Source of the DNA: Candidatus Aenigmatarchaeota archaeon
Lineage (GTDB): Archaea; Aenigmatarchaeota; Aenigmatarchaeia; JACPZZ01
Length of the DNA: 11,160 bases
NCBI GenBank assembly: GCA_043801595.1
Contig: JAZDLW010000013.1
Location: 1-11,160, forward strand
Direction: 5' to 3'
Within the stretch, counting starts at the first letter, position 1. The number at the start of each line of letters is the position of its first letter. Shown piece by piece: positions 1 to 10,086 of this stretch. Under the pieces are notes generated by a model. It searched no databases. It was not told where the DNA came from and saw nothing but the letters and a program-made list of their open reading frames with translations. The translations under genes were made by a program, and so were the position numbers.

Positions 1-627
1 ATCACTTCTAAGAACAATTATCCAACCTTGCGTGAGAGAAGAATAGTCACCATCAGATTTGCCGATAATTGCTATCCAATCATTTGAAACGTCGGAATTA
101 GCCCAAAATTCAATGGTAAAATCACCTGTCCCCAGATTCAAGCTAGCACCACTTCCCATATTAACATAGTCATTCACCCCGTCAAACAGCAACGCATTCC
201 CGAACCTTCCGTTTGTTGTTAATCCTGACGTAGAATTGCCTGTCAAATTCATATTCGTCAGCGTTCCCATGTTGCTGTAACCCGACGAGTCGTTTGTCGC
301 AGCCGAGCCGTTCGACTGTTCGAACCTCCAATAACCGACCAACCCGTTTTGGTTGAACCCGCCGAAAAACAGCGTGTTGCGTACGCTAACGCCGTTGATA
401 TCGGCAACAACAATATCATCATCAGTGATATTCGTTGTGGTCCCGGAATTCCTGACAATTACGTTTATTTTGCTGTTGTAGCATTGCGCGCCACCAGGAG
501 GAATGGTTATGATTTTCTCGGTGTTGCTTGCCATCAGTCCGGAAAACCATGTATACGATACGCCGACAATTCCTACTGTAACAAGCATAAGCATTATCAG
601 CGAAATCACAGGCGTTATGCCTTTCAT
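1..627 (-). CDS. Archaeal type IV pilin-like protein (class III signal peptide) with LamG-like/concanavalin A-like jelly-roll domain; 3' end runs off the window
   Basis: Not in the ORF track (no stop in window). Hand translation from ATG 627 (in-frame alternative ATG 636) is open for 209 codons: MKG|ITPVISLIMLMLVTVGIVGVSYTWFSG...VIVRNSGTTTNIT...GLVGYWRFEQSNGSAATNDSSGYSNMGTL...GRFGNALLFDGVNDYVNMG...LGTGDFTIEFWAN...IIGK...GWIIVLRSD. LVGYW-F, DSSG--N-GTL, G-FG-AL-FDG--DYV and FTI-FW are hallmark Laminin_G_3-type motifs. Confidence 0.9.
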   Translation of the reverse strand, partial: MKGITPVISLIMLMLVTVGIVGVSYTWFSGLMASNTEKIITIPPGGAQCYNSKINVIVRNSGTTTNITDDDIVVADINGVSVRNTLFFGGFNQNGLVGYWRFEQSNGSAATNDSSGYSNMGTLTNMNLTGNSTSGLTTNGRFGNALLFDGVNDYVNMGSGASLNLGTGDFTIEFWANSDVSNDWIAIIGKSDGDYSSLTQGWIIVLRSD

Positions 628-697
628 AAGTAACATATTGTTCCGCGGGGTAAAATAACTAAAATCAATTAGCGGACGCTTGGTTTGCAGCTATTAT

Positions 698-3367
698 TTA
701 GAATCCCATTTCTGCGAAGATGTTTCTCAACTTTGCCAGTTCGGCATGGCCTTGTGCAAAGTCCAGCGATCCTCCGCCGGACCCACCGCCGCGCTTGCAG
801 ATGTCCGATACGATCGAGCCAGCGTTCTCGCTGTTATCCTTGCCGCGTTTCGCAACAACATCCCCGTTCACATTGGCAAGCAGTATGAACGCGTTCGGAT
901 GGTCCGAAGCCATTGCAGCAGCAACTTCGATAAGCTGTTCTCTTTGATAGGGCAGTATATGGAATAATTTGTTGTCCTTGATCTTGCTTCGAAGGTTTTC
1001 AGCCTTCAGGAAGGCAAGTTCGGCCTTAAGCTTGTCAATTTGCTTGTCCTTCTCCTTCCATTCTTCGAAGAACCTTTGTGAAGTGGCGGGAAGCTGTTCG
1101 ATCGTTACGTTGAACACGTCAGCTGACTTTTTCAGCAACGCCTCCTTCTTTTTCAGGTCTTCCCACGCTTTCGAACCGGATGCGAATTCCAATCTTATCA
1201 GGCCGTCCTGAATCCTTTCTGTTTTAAGAATTTTAATAGCTTTTATCTCGTCGGTGTTGCCGACATGCGTCCCCCCACACGCCTCGACATCGTAGCCCGG
1301 TATTTCGACAACTCTGATATCGGCGCTCGGCACAGCCCCGCCCTGGTATATCATCGATCCGTATTTTGTTTCGGCCTCGGTGCGGGTCATAACGGTTTTT
1401 ATTACGTGTATGCTTTTAGCAATTATCTCGTTGGCTTTATTTTCTATCTTGACAACTTCGTCATCAGTGAGGTTTTTGTAATGTGTTATGTCAAGTCTCG
1501 ACTTTTCCACGGTTTTTTCCGCACCCGACTGGTTGACATGCTTTCCCAATACCGTTCTCGCAGCCGAATTTACAATGTGCGTGGCTGTGTGGTTTTTTTC
1601 GAGCTGCTCTCTTCGTTCCCAGTCGATTTCGCCTTTAACGGTCTTGGTTTTTAATTTTTCTTTCAGCGTATGCACGATTACGTTGTTGTATTTTTCAACA
1701 TTTACAACATCGATGTTGTTTATCTTTCCGGTGTCGTGAATCTGCCCGCCCGACGTGGGATAGAAAGCCGTTCTGTTAAGGATAACCTTGTTTCCGCCGA
1801 AAACTTTCACAACGTTTGCCGTGAATGATCTTACGTTGTCGTAATACAAAGCTTTTGTGGGCTTTATTTTCGAAAGGTCGTGATCGAATTTCTTCTCAAC
1901 TTCCTTGTGCCCCATGTGTTGCTGCGACAATTTTTCATAGAAATCCGACGGGACATTTACCTCGATGCCGCGTTGTTTTGCGGCCGTAGTTATCATTTCC
2001 GGCGTAACGCCCTGCGATTCGTACAGCGTGGTCATTTTTTTTCCGTCAATAGGAACATTCTGGTTTACGATAACTTCGACCAATTTCATGGCTCTCGCCT
2101 TCGACGACGAGAAGCGGTCGGATTCGTAATCGATTATTTTTTCAACATCTTTAAGATTTTCCTCGAGCTTCGGATCAAGATCATTCAAAAAGTTCGCATG
2201 CATTGCGCACACTTCGTGCAGCTTTATCTTCAAATTCATTTCGTCGATAAAGCTCAGCGCCCGCCTCAAAACCACGCGAAGATTGTATCCTCCGCCGACG
2301 TTGCTCGGCAATCCGCCGTCGGAAATTGCATAGAGCAGCGTTTTCGCATGGTCGGCAATGGAGTAAACTGCCCGCAGCGGCGCGACTTTTCTCTCCAGTG
2401 TAATTTCATTGATCTCAAGCTCTTTCGCTATCCTTGATCGCGCAAGGCTGAAGTTTTTTGTTTCGTCTATGCTCAACGCCCCCGCAAGCGAGGAATATTT
2501 GGCAAACAAATCCTGGTCGTAATCTACCAGCGTTTTTAGTTGTTCAGCGACCTTGCCGAATGCGGAATCGTAACTTGTTGGCGTTCCCTGCGAGAACCAC
2601 GTTAAACGCTCTAATCCCCAACCAACGTCGACTATCCTGATCGGCAATTCGGATTTTTTGTTGTTCTTCAGGCAGAACTGCATGAACACGGAGTTGACGA
2701 GCTCCAACCCTTTGGAAAAGGTCTCGATGCACGGGCCGAACGCCGACATGTCGGGCATTGTCCACAAATCTTCGACGTACGTTAACTCGTTCTTATCAAT
2801 GCCCATGACGCCCGTAAGAAACTTGAAATTCAGTTCAATGCAGTTGTCTTTCCAGTATCCTGTTTTCGGATAACCGAATGCATGCTGGCCTGCCATTATG
2901 AAAGATGTGTGATGTCGCCCTGTAACGCCGACGTTCGGTATGTCCGGGAATCTCAGACAGACCTGCGGTACGATCAGCCGGTCGCTCGGATATTCAAACG
3001 TTAATCCGGACGAATCGAGGCGCTGGAAGTCCTGTATGCTTGCGATTGTGAAAAACAAATCCGGCCTCCATCTCGATACAACAGGGTAGCGGGGCATCGA
3101 GAAGTGCGAATTTTTCCTGAAGAATTTTTCAAACTCCTTCCACATCTCGACATAGCCGAATCTTTTTTTCGTTATCGAGTTTCCGATAAATCCATAATCA
3201 TCGCAGGAAGAATCGCCGCATGTTTTCCGTTCAGTCGCAGCCCAGAAAAATTTCCCGCATTTTACGCATTGTTTTCTGGAGAAGCCCTGCTCGTCGAGTA
3301 TCTTTATTTTCCAGTACTTCGAGGGCGTTTTCTGGAATTCCTTTATCAGATTTTCTTTAGCAATCAT
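698..3367 (-). CDS. alaS: Alanine--tRNA ligase, archaeal type, full length (catalytic, editing and C-Ala domains)
   Basis: Archaeal N-terminal Cys cluster (RKQCVKCGKFFW...CGDSSCD), YPVVSRWRPD, FTIASIQDFQ, GRHHTSF, VDVGWGLER, ADHAKT, PSNVGGGYNLR, FYPTSGGQIHDTG, editing motifs HTATH and CGGTH, C-terminal GGSGGG..FAQG. Start placed at ATG 3367 (ATGA overlap with the upstream stop); ATG 3373 is the alternative. Confidence 0.98.
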   Translation of the reverse strand: MIAKENLIKEFQKTPSKYWKIKILDEQGFSRKQCVKCGKFFWAATERKTCGDSSCDDYGFIGNSITKKRFGYVEMWKEFEKFFRKNSHFSMPRYPVVSRWRPDLFFTIASIQDFQRLDSSGLTFEYPSDRLIVPQVCLRFPDIPNVGVTGRHHTSFIMAGQHAFGYPKTGYWKDNCIELNFKFLTGVMGIDKNELTYVEDLWTMPDMSAFGPCIETFSKGLELVNSVFMQFCLKNNKKSELPIRIVDVGWGLERLTWFSQGTPTSYDSAFGKVAEQLKTLVDYDQDLFAKYSSLAGALSIDETKNFSLARSRIAKELEINEITLERKVAPLRAVYSIADHAKTLLYAISDGGLPSNVGGGYNLRVVLRRALSFIDEMNLKIKLHEVCAMHANFLNDLDPKLEENLKDVEKIIDYESDRFSSSKARAMKLVEVIVNQNVPIDGKKMTTLYESQGVTPEMITTAAKQRGIEVNVPSDFYEKLSQQHMGHKEVEKKFDHDLSKIKPTKALYYDNVRSFTANVVKVFGGNKVILNRTAFYPTSGGQIHDTGKINNIDVVNVEKYNNVIVHTLKEKLKTKTVKGEIDWERREQLEKNHTATHIVNSAARTVLGKHVNQSGAEKTVEKSRLDITHYKNLTDDEVVKIENKANEIIAKSIHVIKTVMTRTEAETKYGSMIYQGGAVPSADIRVVEIPGYDVEACGGTHVGNTDEIKAIKILKTERIQDGLIRLEFASGSKAWEDLKKKEALLKKSADVFNVTIEQLPATSQRFFEEWKEKDKQIDKLKAELAFLKAENLRSKIKDNKLFHILPYQREQLIEVAAAMASDHPNAFILLANVNGDVVAKRGKDNSENAGSIVSDICKRGGGSGGGSLDFAQGHAELAKLRNIFAEMGF

Positions 3368-3804
3368 TGCCATCCATGCTCGCTATAGATTATTCTCTTC
3401 TCGATCTTATTGATAGCCTGCCTGATGTAAGGTATCGTGTTCTCCGGCAATTTGTTTATTTCGAACCAGCTTAAATCATCGCATTTGCCCGGTTCCATGT
3501 TTTTTATTTCGCCACCCCATTTGTCCGCGCGTATGAATACGTCGATTCGTTCCGCGTCAGGAACTTTGCGGTGCATTACGTGGACAACGTTCATGTCTTC
3601 GGTGTTTATTTCAATGCCAGCTTCTTCTTTAGCCTCACGCGCCATCGCTTCCAAAAACGTTTCATTTCCGTCAAGGTGACCGGCAACAACGCTGTAATTT
3701 CCGTCCATCCAGCCGGTGTTAAAGCGGCGGAGCAGCAGGATTTTATCACCTCTGGTCAGAATAAGGTGGGATGTCGGTATGAGCGTGAATCTTTCTTTTA
3801 CCAT
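3364..3804 (-). CDS. NUDIX hydrolase (MutT-like)
   Basis: Nudix box GHLDGNETFLEAMAREAKEEAGI, preceded by ILLLRRFNTGWMDG and followed by NMEPGKCDDLSWF. ATG 3804 preferred over the track's non-ATG start at 3849. Confidence 0.92.
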   Translation of the reverse strand: MVKERFTLIPTSHLILTRGDKILLLRRFNTGWMDGNYSVVAGHLDGNETFLEAMAREAKEEAGIEINTEDMNVVHVMHRKVPDAERIDVFIRADKWGGEIKNMEPGKCDDLSWFEINKLPENTIPYIRQAINKIEKRIIYSEHGWQ

Positions 3805-3856
3805 AAAATTACACAGAACAATCATTGATAAATTGCTGTAAACAATCAAAAACCGC

Positions 3857-4177
3857 TTATGCAGCGGCGCCGCAGTTCTGGCAGTGCGCGATAAGGATCC
3901 GCCTCACGCCAAAAAGTTTTATTGTTTGATTGTTCATGCTTTCCGAACCGCAATATCCGCAGTTCTTCGCGCTTGACCATATTTTCGGTCGTCTTTTTCG
4001 GCCGTAGCGGAAGAATAAATTCGAATTGCGGTAGCTTTTGCTTAAAAACGAAGAAACATACGAAACGCCGGTTGAAACCTTGTCAAGAAGCGCGGATTTC
4101 GCTTCGCGCTGCGGAGAATAGTCGGCTTTCGCAGAGTCGTCGTATGTTCCATCTGGGTGGTAATATGAAATCTTCAT
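3857..4177 (-). CDS. Hypothetical basic protein with C-terminal C4 zinc ribbon
   Basis: 106 aa from ATG 4177, filling the gap between the two NUDIX genes on the same strand; two knuckles CGYCG and CQNCG 22 residues apart; basic patch RYGRKRRPK. Confidence 0.7.
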   Translation of the reverse strand: MKISYYHPDGTYDDSAKADYSPQREAKSALLDKVSTGVSYVSSFLSKSYRNSNLFFRYGRKRRPKIWSSAKNCGYCGSESMNNQTIKLFGVRRILIAHCQNCGAAA

Positions 4178-4188
4178 TGTGCCAACAG

Positions 4189-4635
4189 CTATTTCTTCGC
4201 AATGCCAGCCTTTAATACAGAACGTAGCAGGGTTCGTTGATTGTACCACCTTAAGCTCTTCAGCGCTTCTTTTGCCGTGAACCAGCCGTAGCCTGAAAAC
4301 GATTCTTTTTCAACATTGACATTGGTTGTGATCGCCTTGACCAGAAAAGCCTTTTGCACAGTTCCGTAGGAACCGAACCTTTCGCGGCTTTCTTTTGGGT
4401 AATTATATTTGATAGGTTTTCCAACGCGTTTTAGAAATTTGATCCTTTTCAAACCAGTTTCTTCGTGAACCTCGCGTATAACAGCCTCTTTGTTCGTCTC
4501 CCCTTGTTCAATCCCGCCTTTCGGAAATTCCCAGCCCTTCCACCCCTGTTTTCTCCTCAAAAGAAGAAACTTAATTTCATCAGGGAAATTCCTAAAAACA
4601 ATGCCTATTGCAACGCGTCTTATTTTCTTCATCAT
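4189..4635 (-). CDS. NUDIX hydrolase (Ap4A hydrolase/RppH-like)
   Basis: WEFPKGGIEQGETNKEAVIREVHEETGL is a canonical GX5EX7REUXEEXGU Nudix box; the FLLL...W.FPKG context resembles Ap4A-hydrolase-type members. Substrate is inference only. Confidence 0.92.
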   Translation of the reverse strand: MMKKIRRVAIGIVFRNFPDEIKFLLLRRKQGWKGWEFPKGGIEQGETNKEAVIREVHEETGLKRIKFLKRVGKPIKYNYPKESRERFGSYGTVQKAFLVKAITTNVNVEKESFSGYGWFTAKEALKSLRWYNQRTLLRSVLKAGIAKK

Positions 4636-8877: not shown

Positions 8878-10086
8878 CTAGCAAATACTGGTAACGGATG
8901 TCCCTGTAACGCCGCTTCCACTTCCCGCTATATCTCCGACATATCCGACAAACCCGTCGTTGACCATTATCAGATCGAATTCCGCGCCATTGCCTAGGCC
9001 AAGATCATTTGTGGTCATTCTTATTTTGAACGGGCTGTTTGACGAAGATTGCGTTACTGTAAGATAATAATCGTAGGCATCAAAATTATTGACACCATTC
9101 GAAACATCCGCTATCGACATGACAGTCGTATTTACAGCGAGCACAATATCATCCTTATCGAGCAGCTCCACTTTGCTTAGAGTAAAGTCATCCGTGTCTT
9201 CAGTGTAAGTGCAAATCGCCTGAAGGTCGTTGTCGTAGTCGCCGCCGCTTTTATGTTCTGTACGAATCTTTAGCGTGCTGCCCGCGGTTATCGAGTTTAT
9301 GCAGGCGAATGTTTTTGAACATGGGATCTGCAGTTTCGTTCCCATCAAAATGTCGCCTATGTAAGTTCTCTTGTCATCTCCGTTCACGCTGTAAAGCCAG
9401 AACTGTTGGTCCTGCGGTCTGGTCAATCCTGTGAATGAAAACTCAGCGTAAAAGGGTCCGTTCGACGAAGCCTGCGTTATCGTTAAATCGATAAAACGGT
9501 TCTCTATTTTTGGGACAAGGCTGTCCCCTGTCTGCAACGAGCCGGACCATGACCCGATCGCGTTGCCGTCTTTGTCCCTTATTGTTATTCCGGTCAGTGT
9601 CGGATCGTTGCACCCGGTGCACGTAGGGCCGCCGTTGATGTTGCTCAATCCTGCTCCGCCGTCTTCTGCACAGTCATTGTGCCAGCGGAACCTGACAATG
9701 TCGTTTTGGTCAAATACGGAATTCCACGCGCAAGATGTTTCTATTGTGAAGTCGAAGGACATTGCCGGCGACACGACCTTTCCGCTTATTTTTCCGTAAC
9801 CACGCGGTATTATTTCGAGTATTGCAGCTTTTCCTGCCTGTATTTTTGTCGGATTAGATATGCCCGCGTCGCCTGAACCGGCGAAAAAATCAAGGTTGTT
9901 CGTGTCTATCTCCGTTGTTCCGAGATTTGTAACAATTATTTTATTTCCGTTGATAGGCGTTACTTTGAACGTATTTGACGTTTGCGTTGTTGTTATTCCG
10001 GACAGCCACGTATAGGACGCTCCGATAAGACCTACTGTTATCAGCATAAGTAAAATCAGCGAAACAACGGGCGTTATAGCTTTCAT
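8878..10086 (-). CDS. Archaeal type IV pilin-like protein (class III signal peptide) with two tandem ~140-aa C-terminal domains
   Basis: MKA|ITPVVSLILLMLITVGLIGASYTWLSG matches the archaeal prepilin pattern; pilin-head motifs IVTNLGTTEI and IQAGK; the internal repeat is visible in the protein. Confidence 0.88.
   Translation of the reverse strand: MKAITPVVSLILLMLITVGLIGASYTWLSGITTTQTSNTFKVTPINGNKIIVTNLGTTEIDTNNLDFFAGSGDAGISNPTKIQAGKAAILEIIPRGYGKISGKVVSPAMSFDFTIETSCAWNSVFDQNDIVRFRWHNDCAEDGGAGLSNINGGPTCTGCNDPTLTGITIRDKDGNAIGSWSGSLQTGDSLVPKIENRFIDLTITQASSNGPFYAEFSFTGLTRPQDQQFWLYSVNGDDKRTYIGDILMGTKLQIPCSKTFACINSITAGSTLKIRTEHKSGGDYDNDLQAICTYTEDTDDFTLSKVELLDKDDIVLAVNTTVMSIADVSNGVNNFDAYDYYLTVTQSSSNSPFKIRMTTNDLGLGNGAEFDLIMVNDGFVGYVGDIAGSGSGVTGTSVTSIC
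8881..9732 (-). repeat. Diverged intragenic tandem duplication (aa 119-256 and 262-402)
   Basis: TLTGITIRDKDG/TLSKVELLDKDD, LTITQASSNGPF/LTVTQSSSNSPF, FWLYSVN/FDLIMVN and YIGDI/YVGDI, all at a 139-141 aa offset. Confidence 0.85.

Follow-up and report, generated by a model that had tools for sequence, protein, structure and literature searches.

Near-identical pilin-like frames carrying unrelated LamG cores in Aenigmatarchaeota, probably exchanged by recombination at two conserved motifs

The window analyzed here comprises 11,160 nucleotides and is the whole of one contig (C32) of an archaeal genome, G000 (814 kb, 86% complete). Homologues (P0012 and proteins of G031) carry the name Ca. Aenigmatarchaeota at their source, so that the organism is probably a DPANN archaeon of this phylum. 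At its first bases it carries one member of a gene family in which near-identical pilin-LamG frames enclose a differing middle of about 130 codons, a pattern that likely results from homeologous recombination at two conserved LamG motifs. Sequence comparison established that the frames are constant and themselves mosaic, that the cores are unrelated, that junctions lie at the motif FDGxxDYV or no more than about 25 codons away from it on one side and at FNGxIDEV on the other, and that congeners have different cores at loci they share; many cores also have foreign codon usage. A sequence-only reading of this DNA had proposed that the LamG core was exchanged by recombination or gene conversion at the conserved motif, and the unrelated cores in like frames and the junctions near FDGxxDYV support that proposal.

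The pilin-LamG gene occupies positions 1 to 627 of the reverse strand. Its 5' part, 209 codons from an ATG at 627 (an alternative ATG lies at 636), is cut by the contig end; full-length paralogues have 331-363 aa. Because the window begins at the first base of the contig, the far end of the core of this copy is unassembled. All parts of the gene lie on the reverse strand. Positions 544-627 encode a class III-type signal peptide (MKG followed by ITPV...) and a hydrophobic pilin helix, as read from the sequence and the structure model of the paralogue C23, and positions 337-543 encode the N-terminal half of a small pilin beta domain, according to alignments and the same model; both belong to the constant frame, the latter being mosaic among copies. 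Comparison with the copies places the constant N-terminal LamG strands, from GYWRFE to FDGVNDYV, at 163-336, including the left anchor FDGVNDYV at 163-186, where identity to all paralogues ends or starts fading. As identity to C23 fades over a zone at 136-162 (6/9, 5/9, 5/9, then 2/9), while identity to the paralogue C13 stops at 164, the crossovers appear to be spread and not confined to one base. The visible 54 codons of the variable LamG core (1-162) have a GC3 of 0.30, are CpG-poor and are unrelated to the paralogue cores. An AT-rich promoter-like box at 650-664 (reverse strand), found by eye and partly common to the upstream DNA of copies C13 and C25, may be an archaeal TATA region; a sigma-70 promoter scan of 600-760, which is unsuited to archaea, found no promoter. 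The upstream neighbour, by locus comparison, is alaS (698-3373, reverse strand). Upstream of alaS, at 3364-4249 (reverse strand), a NUDIX-like ORF and a 130-aa ORF have no match at this position in four congeners, which have other small ORFs there. The window also holds a second pilin-like gene of 402 aa without LamG, directly after ftsZ (8878-10086, reverse strand); since close homologues are found in G005 and G006, it looks stably inherited, unlike the LamG family.

The compositional break in the window gene is real. The hand counts of the sequence-only reading were reproduced for positions 169-393 (50/75 G/C-ending codons, 23 CpG) and 1-168 (16/56, 4 CpG), and needed correction for the first 78 codons (37/78, not 38/78). 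That reading had placed the switch at FDGVNDYV without frame disruption; the best break does fall inside this motif, and the frame is open to base 1. Neither are GC3 swings of this size routine in the genome, which would have spoken against it: among 136,594 positions of adjacent 75- and 56-codon windows in 630 ORFs of at least 150 aa (from a crude ORF caller; genome GC3 0.525), only the break in the window gene reaches 0.38. A permutation test that allows for the choice of breakpoint gave p = 0.004 (2,000 shuffles). With amino-acid composition taken into account, neither frame segment stands out (z +0.3 each), and the core shows depletion, with 16/54 G/C-ending codons against an expected 0.56 (z -4.1); CpG observed/expected is 0.69 in the core versus 1.4-1.5 in the frame segments. 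It should be noted that the 67% in positions 169-393 is a high pick, as 46 of 2,615 75-codon windows reach 67% and the whole frame lies at 0.55-0.60, and that AT-richness like that of the core, found in 35 of 3,584 56-codon windows, is uncommon rather than unique; the anomaly therefore sits in the core. Whether composition returns to normal beyond the core had been raised as a check, and it does so in the fully assembled paralogue C23, with a GC3 of 0.39 in the core (z -3.65) and 0.59 in the tail. Among the other G000 cores, C30 and C20a are depleted too (z -2.2 and -2.3), and C13 and the partial C20b have no GC3 dip.

The family in G000 is dispersed and comprises seven related genes or fragments: the window gene, C23, C13, C25, C30, C20a and C20b. 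DNA identity to the window frame is 88-94% for C23, C13 and C25 and 71% for C30; C20b has a different N-terminus, yet has the GYW-to-FDG block in common at 80%. A constant pilin frame with a variable LamG insert had been envisaged, with other copies joined to different sequence from the motif onward, and the G000 copies agree on both points, with three frames 88-94% identical in DNA to that of the window gene, loss of all likeness at FDGxxDYV in the two of these copies that are long enough, and blastn matches to the window that end at 150, 163, 164 and 164; in every copy long enough for the test, DNA matches stop at 150-164. The window and C23 frames have 98% protein identity and differ at 8/77 four-fold sites, and their cores are unrelated; for comparison, 145-157 of 239-257 four-fold sites in alaS differ between G000 and its congeners. 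C23 and C13 are wholly different over about 130 codons and then alike again from FNGAIDEV, identity resuming abruptly at TTCAACGGCGCAATC; the FNGxIDEV motif is the right anchor of the cores, as FDGxxDYV is the left. The frames are patchworks, by a runs test in G000 (p 0.013) and by PHI-type tests in G031 (p <0.002) and G010 (p 0.024). One LamG gene in G000 (L084, C20:2-421, reverse strand) has a non-pilin signal peptide and its own core together with a 183-nt GYW-to-FDG block like that of the pilin copies (80-83%), a case in which the constant LamG block evidently moves between frames too.

As the core forms the last 162 bases of the contig and repeats break the G000 assembly (6 of 64 contig ends fall inside family genes), the assembler might have crossed from the repeated frame into another organism's LamG gene at the contig end. 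Such a chimera is very improbable, as a like structure is fully assembled in C23, inside a 170-kb contig, and in dozens of copies in independent genomes. The frame, moreover, stays open and LamG-like, and a misjoin could at most put a real core at the wrong locus.

Membership of the gene product among type IV pilins was examined by signal peptide, fold and machinery. The signal peptide, MKG followed by ITPVISLIMLMLVTVGIVGV, fits the class III pattern ([KR][GA] cleavage site, charged leader, hydrophobic helix); TIGR02537 gives only 12.3 bits (cut-off 20), the UpsA profile also scores under its cut-off, and Pfam assigns the window gene no pilin family. In the C23 model (pLDDT 90.4), a helix at residues 4-34 is followed by pilin strands at 47-77 and 326-358, with LamG (96-312) inserted between them; the variable part corresponds to strands 168-288, the core spanning 11 of the 17 modelled LamG strands. 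In full-length paralogues the C-terminal half of the pilin beta domain accordingly follows the LamG insert, and LamG-less pilins of 141-155 aa in G000 align to both pilin-domain halves. PF13385 is matched over cut-off by full-length paralogues (68-95 bits) and under cut-off by the truncated window copy (21.6-25.3 bits). Foldseek matched the C23 fold to AbnA domain 4 (5hon_A, TM by target 0.77), and a PDB profile search gave 4qvs (E 2e-31); as modelled, the fold is a ConA/LamG jelly-roll. From the fold family we infer that the variable strands may bind a glycan or protein ligand. Neurotoxin HcN domains, sialidases and pentraxins, which also appeared among the Foldseek and PDB profile matches, were set aside as guides, since at 12-21% identity they reflect a common fold and not function. 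The assembly machinery that goes with an archaeal type IV pilin, a secretion ATPase and a prepilin peptidase, appears to be encoded in G000: three PF00437 matches are over cut-off, and one A24 prepilin peptidase match, at 25.3 bits, is just below the cut-off of 26.5, this family being over cut-off in 5/7 genus genomes; a prepilin peptidase is probably present in G000. In congeners, two secretion ATPase frames (1,856 and 1,357 aa) and a RadA frame (1,149 aa), at G004:C15, G005:C2:73326 and G004:C23, respectively, are far longer than their counterparts and possibly contain inteins.

The loci of the family genes differ between G000 and its congeners. After alaS, no pilin-LamG gene is found in any of the four congeners examined (G002, G004, G005 and G006), and in three of them an ssb-like gene comes directly next. 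In G000 an ssb-like gene is carried by contig C14, and as the final 39 bases of a family tail open this contig, C32 and C14 are likely joined through the window gene. The trpS site is without a family gene in 4/4 congeners and the TBP site in 2/3; in G006, another pilin-LamG gene lies one gene upstream of TBP. Pilin-LamG genes were likely gained at these sites, to judge by gene order, with the reservation that, as G000 branches outside the congeners with empty sites, the gain is not strictly polarised. Homology among copies stops at the stop codon, and the G010 and G031 copies have about 35 upstream bases in common, with a TATA-like box seen by eye.

Matches to the family were obtained in 38 of 41 genomes searched, mostly to pilin or LamG parts only, and regions from nine relatives, picked for strong or numerous matches, were compared. 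Orthologues equally conserved on both sides of the motif would have weakened the case; instead, among the G031 copies and at the loci shared by G124 and G031, frames are conserved where cores are not. Averaged over pairs of the 15 G031 copies, DNA identity lies near 0.65-0.9 in the frame, drops to about 0.3-0.55 in the core and recovers to about 0.73-0.84 in the tail. The G031 frames are at the background GC3 of 0.57, and 14/14 cores are depleted (z -3.2 to -8.6), with heterogeneity among them (p 0.003) and 71% A/T at four-fold sites versus 38% in the background. In G010 (background GC3 0.29), cores are at or below background, 3/9 significantly, and 5/9 frames are above it. G124, of the same genus as G031, has cores 19, 23 and 23% identical to those of G031 at 3/3 shared loci (both flanks common at one, the downstream flank only at two). 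Among nine G124 cores, one shares 85% identity with a G031 core yet lies in another downstream context, and one is 50-54% identical to cores of a different frame family in G005/G006; the G124 frames (GC3 0.37-0.47) are also below background (0.52), one G124 row having been mis-parsed for GC3. In G002, G004, G005 and G006, cores were replaced in 2/7 syntenic pairs (one with a scaffold gap) and kept in 5/7; the kept cores of G002/G005/G006 are 54-82% identical and show no GC3 dip, and three further copies in these genomes, outside the seven-pair comparison, retain cores at 73-91%. Core turnover, as judged from these alignments, is thus real but uneven among relatives. Left junctions lie anywhere between the DYV codons and a point about 25 codons further on, and two versions of one G010 core have different right anchors. 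The G031 assembly also contains a fork in which 127 identical nucleotides, from a single upstream contig, end exactly at the DYV codons and continue into two unrelated cores, and a second fork at the anchors leads from one core to two tails; these forks, which involve contigs C6 with C45/C46 and C39 with C5/C11, may be population variants or collapsed repeats or paralogues. Some copies, namely L024:9200-10107 and L023:15675-16692 (G005) and L076:8317-9371 (G010), are missing a portion of the pilin domain or interrupted by a frameshift, through either decay or assembly error.

These comparisons bear on whether concerted evolution is sufficient, that is, whether loci and cores are old paralogues whose conserved ends are homogenised by conversion, with nothing imported. 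The mosaic frames and the many cores kept at orthologous loci in G002/G005/G006 are in line with this explanation, as are the G010 frames above background, which biased conversion would give, and an exact 27-nt anchor held in common with a different pilin in G031 (C40:6061-6087, a different pilin-LamG type bearing a copy of the left anchor DNA). It does not sit well, however, with the contrast between G031 frames at background and G031 cores far below it, when the retained cores of G005/G006 are at background, or with the unrelated cores at shared G124/G031 loci, the core that changed locus and the empty alaS, trpS and TBP sites. Concerted evolution alone is already weakened on these grounds, and we consider it unlikely.

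The relationships of the cores to outside domains weigh in the same direction. When 27 cores were placed in one tree with 54 outside domains, five clades combined cores with outsiders (SH-aLRT 96-100) and cores did not cluster by genome; AU tests on 14 rows, chosen after the tree was seen, reject own-genome monophyly with p values of 0.008, 0.019 and 4e-5. The best outside match beats the own paralogue for 26/27 cores, a figure inflated by pool size. For the C23 core, identity reaches 52% and 48% with LamG domains in the non-pilin proteins P0077 and P0082, and no more than 36% with any sequence from 300 genomes of the phylum. A protein of 2,116 aa contains a domain that matches a G010 core at 65% over 95 aa, a G031 core is 42% identical to a protein named Ca. 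Paceibacterota, and some cores resemble modules of giant multi-LamG proteins (44-53%). When submitted to the ESM Atlas, the C23 core fell into generic LamG clusters that look viral in their features and bacterial in their structure, a result to be taken as a lead only. For the 54 core codons of the window no donor was found, the best matches being 45-62% over 34-65 aa with the anchor included. As no near-identical donor was found for any core in these comparisons, import is dated by composition alone. Pattern scans of metagenome, genome and viral contigs revealed no close relative of the window gene; the best segments reach 31-81%, the high values being short. Sparse reads (one run, 0.09 of words) yielded a single 269-nt piece of alaS, at depth 2, together with three pieces of 38-57 nt, 81-92% identical to window 136-215, that come from other sequences, which hints that anchor-like DNA occurs in unrelated community contigs. 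Giant multi-LamG proteins were rejected as silent donors, as the best core identity is 53% and none is near-identical. Silent-cassette donors were likewise absent among the six PF13385 places of G000, which include neither a promoterless core array nor a giant multi-LamG protein, and pilin cores match giant-protein cores at 44-53% at best, in genomes whose assemblies are incomplete and interrupted at these repeats. G005 (L021-L022) and G006 (L036-L037) contain giant ORFs flanked by pilin-LamG genes; that of G005 has 9,075 aa with 27 LamG modules, that of G006 8,769 aa with 26.

One could also suppose that a single ancestral core gave rise to all the others in situ, through local hypermutation with an AT bias and diversifying selection. 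AT-rich cores do occur in several lineages, and the four-fold sites of G031 noted above would suit such a bias. We give this explanation very little credence, since the cores, while retaining LamG motifs, differ by many indels, and several have more in common with outside proteins than with their paralogues; a diversity-generating retroelement (DGR), for its part, would deplete A, not enrich it.

The recombination machinery of these genomes was surveyed as well. All 7 genus genomes have RadA. Searches of 5 genomes, which are incomplete, yielded no MutS, NucS or DprA in any of them. Some junctions are very sharp, namely those of C23/C13 at both anchors and that of the G031 fork at the DYV codons, and the copied unit stops with the stop codon and, for the G010 and G031 copies, opens with the shared upstream bases; such features are what one would expect of a dedicated programmed system, in which a site-specific recombinase, an integron- or shufflon-like element or a retro-element swaps cores at fixed sites. 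A search for RVT_1 reverse transcriptases, however, gave none in G000, G010, G005 or G002, so that G010, 98% complete, has the pattern without one. The reverse transcriptases in 2/5 relatives (G031 and G006) belong to ordinary DGRs with their own repeats and non-LamG target genes, and a DGR was rejected as the source of the cores. PF00589 integrases over cut-off were absent from G000, G002, G005 and G006, and the single matches in G031 and G010 are not beside a family copy; within this survey, which covered tyrosine recombinases, an integron or shufflon was discarded on finding no such enzyme next to the cassettes and no single fixed crossover site. The spread of left junctions over about 25 codons and the lack of a promoterless core array in G000 also argue against a programmed system, which we regard as improbable.

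Homeologous recombination at the two motifs, the reading that we favour, would operate as follows. A unit of about 1.1 kb, consisting of a short promoter-like region and the ORF and ending at the stop codon, would be copied to new intergenic sites. RadA-type recombination across 25-60 nt of conserved motif DNA on each side would replace the core in frame, helped by the apparent absence of MutS/NucS; the incoming core could belong to another copy or to a giant multi-LamG protein, or derive from AT-richer viruses or organisms that share the community. Gene conversion would hold the frames alike. Incorporated as minor pilins in type IV filaments, the products would show different predicted glycan-binding faces, and selection would act on the displayed faces through host attachment or virus escape. 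Core swaps would act over evolutionary time and may still be running in some populations. Points against this reading are the cores kept without a GC3 dip in G002/G005/G006, the undepleted C13 and C20b cores, the G124 frames below background, the lack of a near-identical donor and the failure to find DprA in the 5 genomes searched. A broader proposal, which we offer tentatively and consider doubtful at present, is that Aenigmatarchaeota and other DPANN run active surface variation without a reverse transcriptase or site-specific recombinase, a spreading promoter-plus-ORF pilin unit capturing lectin cores of hosts, neighbours or viruses via 25-60 nt anchors, fast enough for alternative cores to stand behind the same frame in one population, as at the G031 fork. 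If true, these archaea would have their own version of antigenic variation, supplied from a library of adhesins that spans the community, and host range would be predictable from the repertoire of cores.

Core variation would let the cell, a tiny and probably symbiotic archaeon, vary its host attachment, and the family bears on how DPANN symbionts recognise and change hosts. It provides a constant scaffold with dozens of natural, cleanly bounded predicted binding cores, so that specificity is testable core by core and core turnover is traceable in metagenomes. The family also offers a cause for scattered pilin genes, assembly breaks and rearrangements in these genomes. In Neisseria pilE/pilS, a pilin with constant and variable parts is changed by RecA-family recombination from silent cassettes. 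In contrast to that system, we saw here no single expression locus and no silent cassette array; each copy has a promoter-like region, and the cores are 20-35% alike and partly foreign.

Of the published systems, the adhesins gp37/gp38 of T-even phages, which are described in an accessible part of PMC3157838 (citing Tetart et al. 1998) as swapped at conserved motifs, offer the closest likeness in the exchange of a variable part at conserved motifs, seen here in junction positions, replaced cores at shared loci and tree incongruence. They differ in that our case, known from sequence comparison, concerns a cellular archaeon with many dispersed copies and one LamG-fold core of about 130 codons in a pilin, with foreign codon usage. 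Expansions of LamG/ConA-like surface proteins in DPANN, some tied to type IV pili loci, are proposed to serve host attachment (Mia14, PMC5498576; Undinarchaeota, PMC7414124; Nanohalobium, PMC7443923), and PF13385 occurs in 208/274 genomes of the class examined here. The available parts of these papers describe abundance and strain specificity, to which constant frames, exchanged cores, junctions and codon-usage breaks are added here. Type IV pilins of Nanobdellati/DPANN are reported, in the available parts of PMC13705601 and PMC4858521, as highly varied and scattered away from ATPase and platform genes, a dispersal left unexplained there; LamG and lectin are absent from their main texts as far as available. 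Nothing specific to LamG core exchange stands in the available parts of PMC6393860 and bioRxiv 10.64898/2026.10.09.758139, and the literature search, whose coverage excluded supplements and most subscription papers, returned no account of exchanged LamG cores in DPANN pilins. LamG expansions and scattered pilins in DPANN are thus known, and the exchange of cores in DPANN pilins appears to be new as far as this search reached.

DGRs of DPANN diversify a predicted ligand-binding domain of a surface protein, according to the relevant part of PMC7443923. They occur in the same organism group and are present in G031 and G006; the family described here differs in having no reverse transcriptase in G000/G010, in whole-domain replacement with indels instead of adenine-specific point changes, and in a LamG domain instead of a C-type lectin. 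The apparent DGRs of G031 (L146:4957-8476) and G006 (L151:1-2225) each consist of a reverse transcriptase and repeat pairs that differ mostly at adenines, and the repeats at both lie in non-LamG genes.
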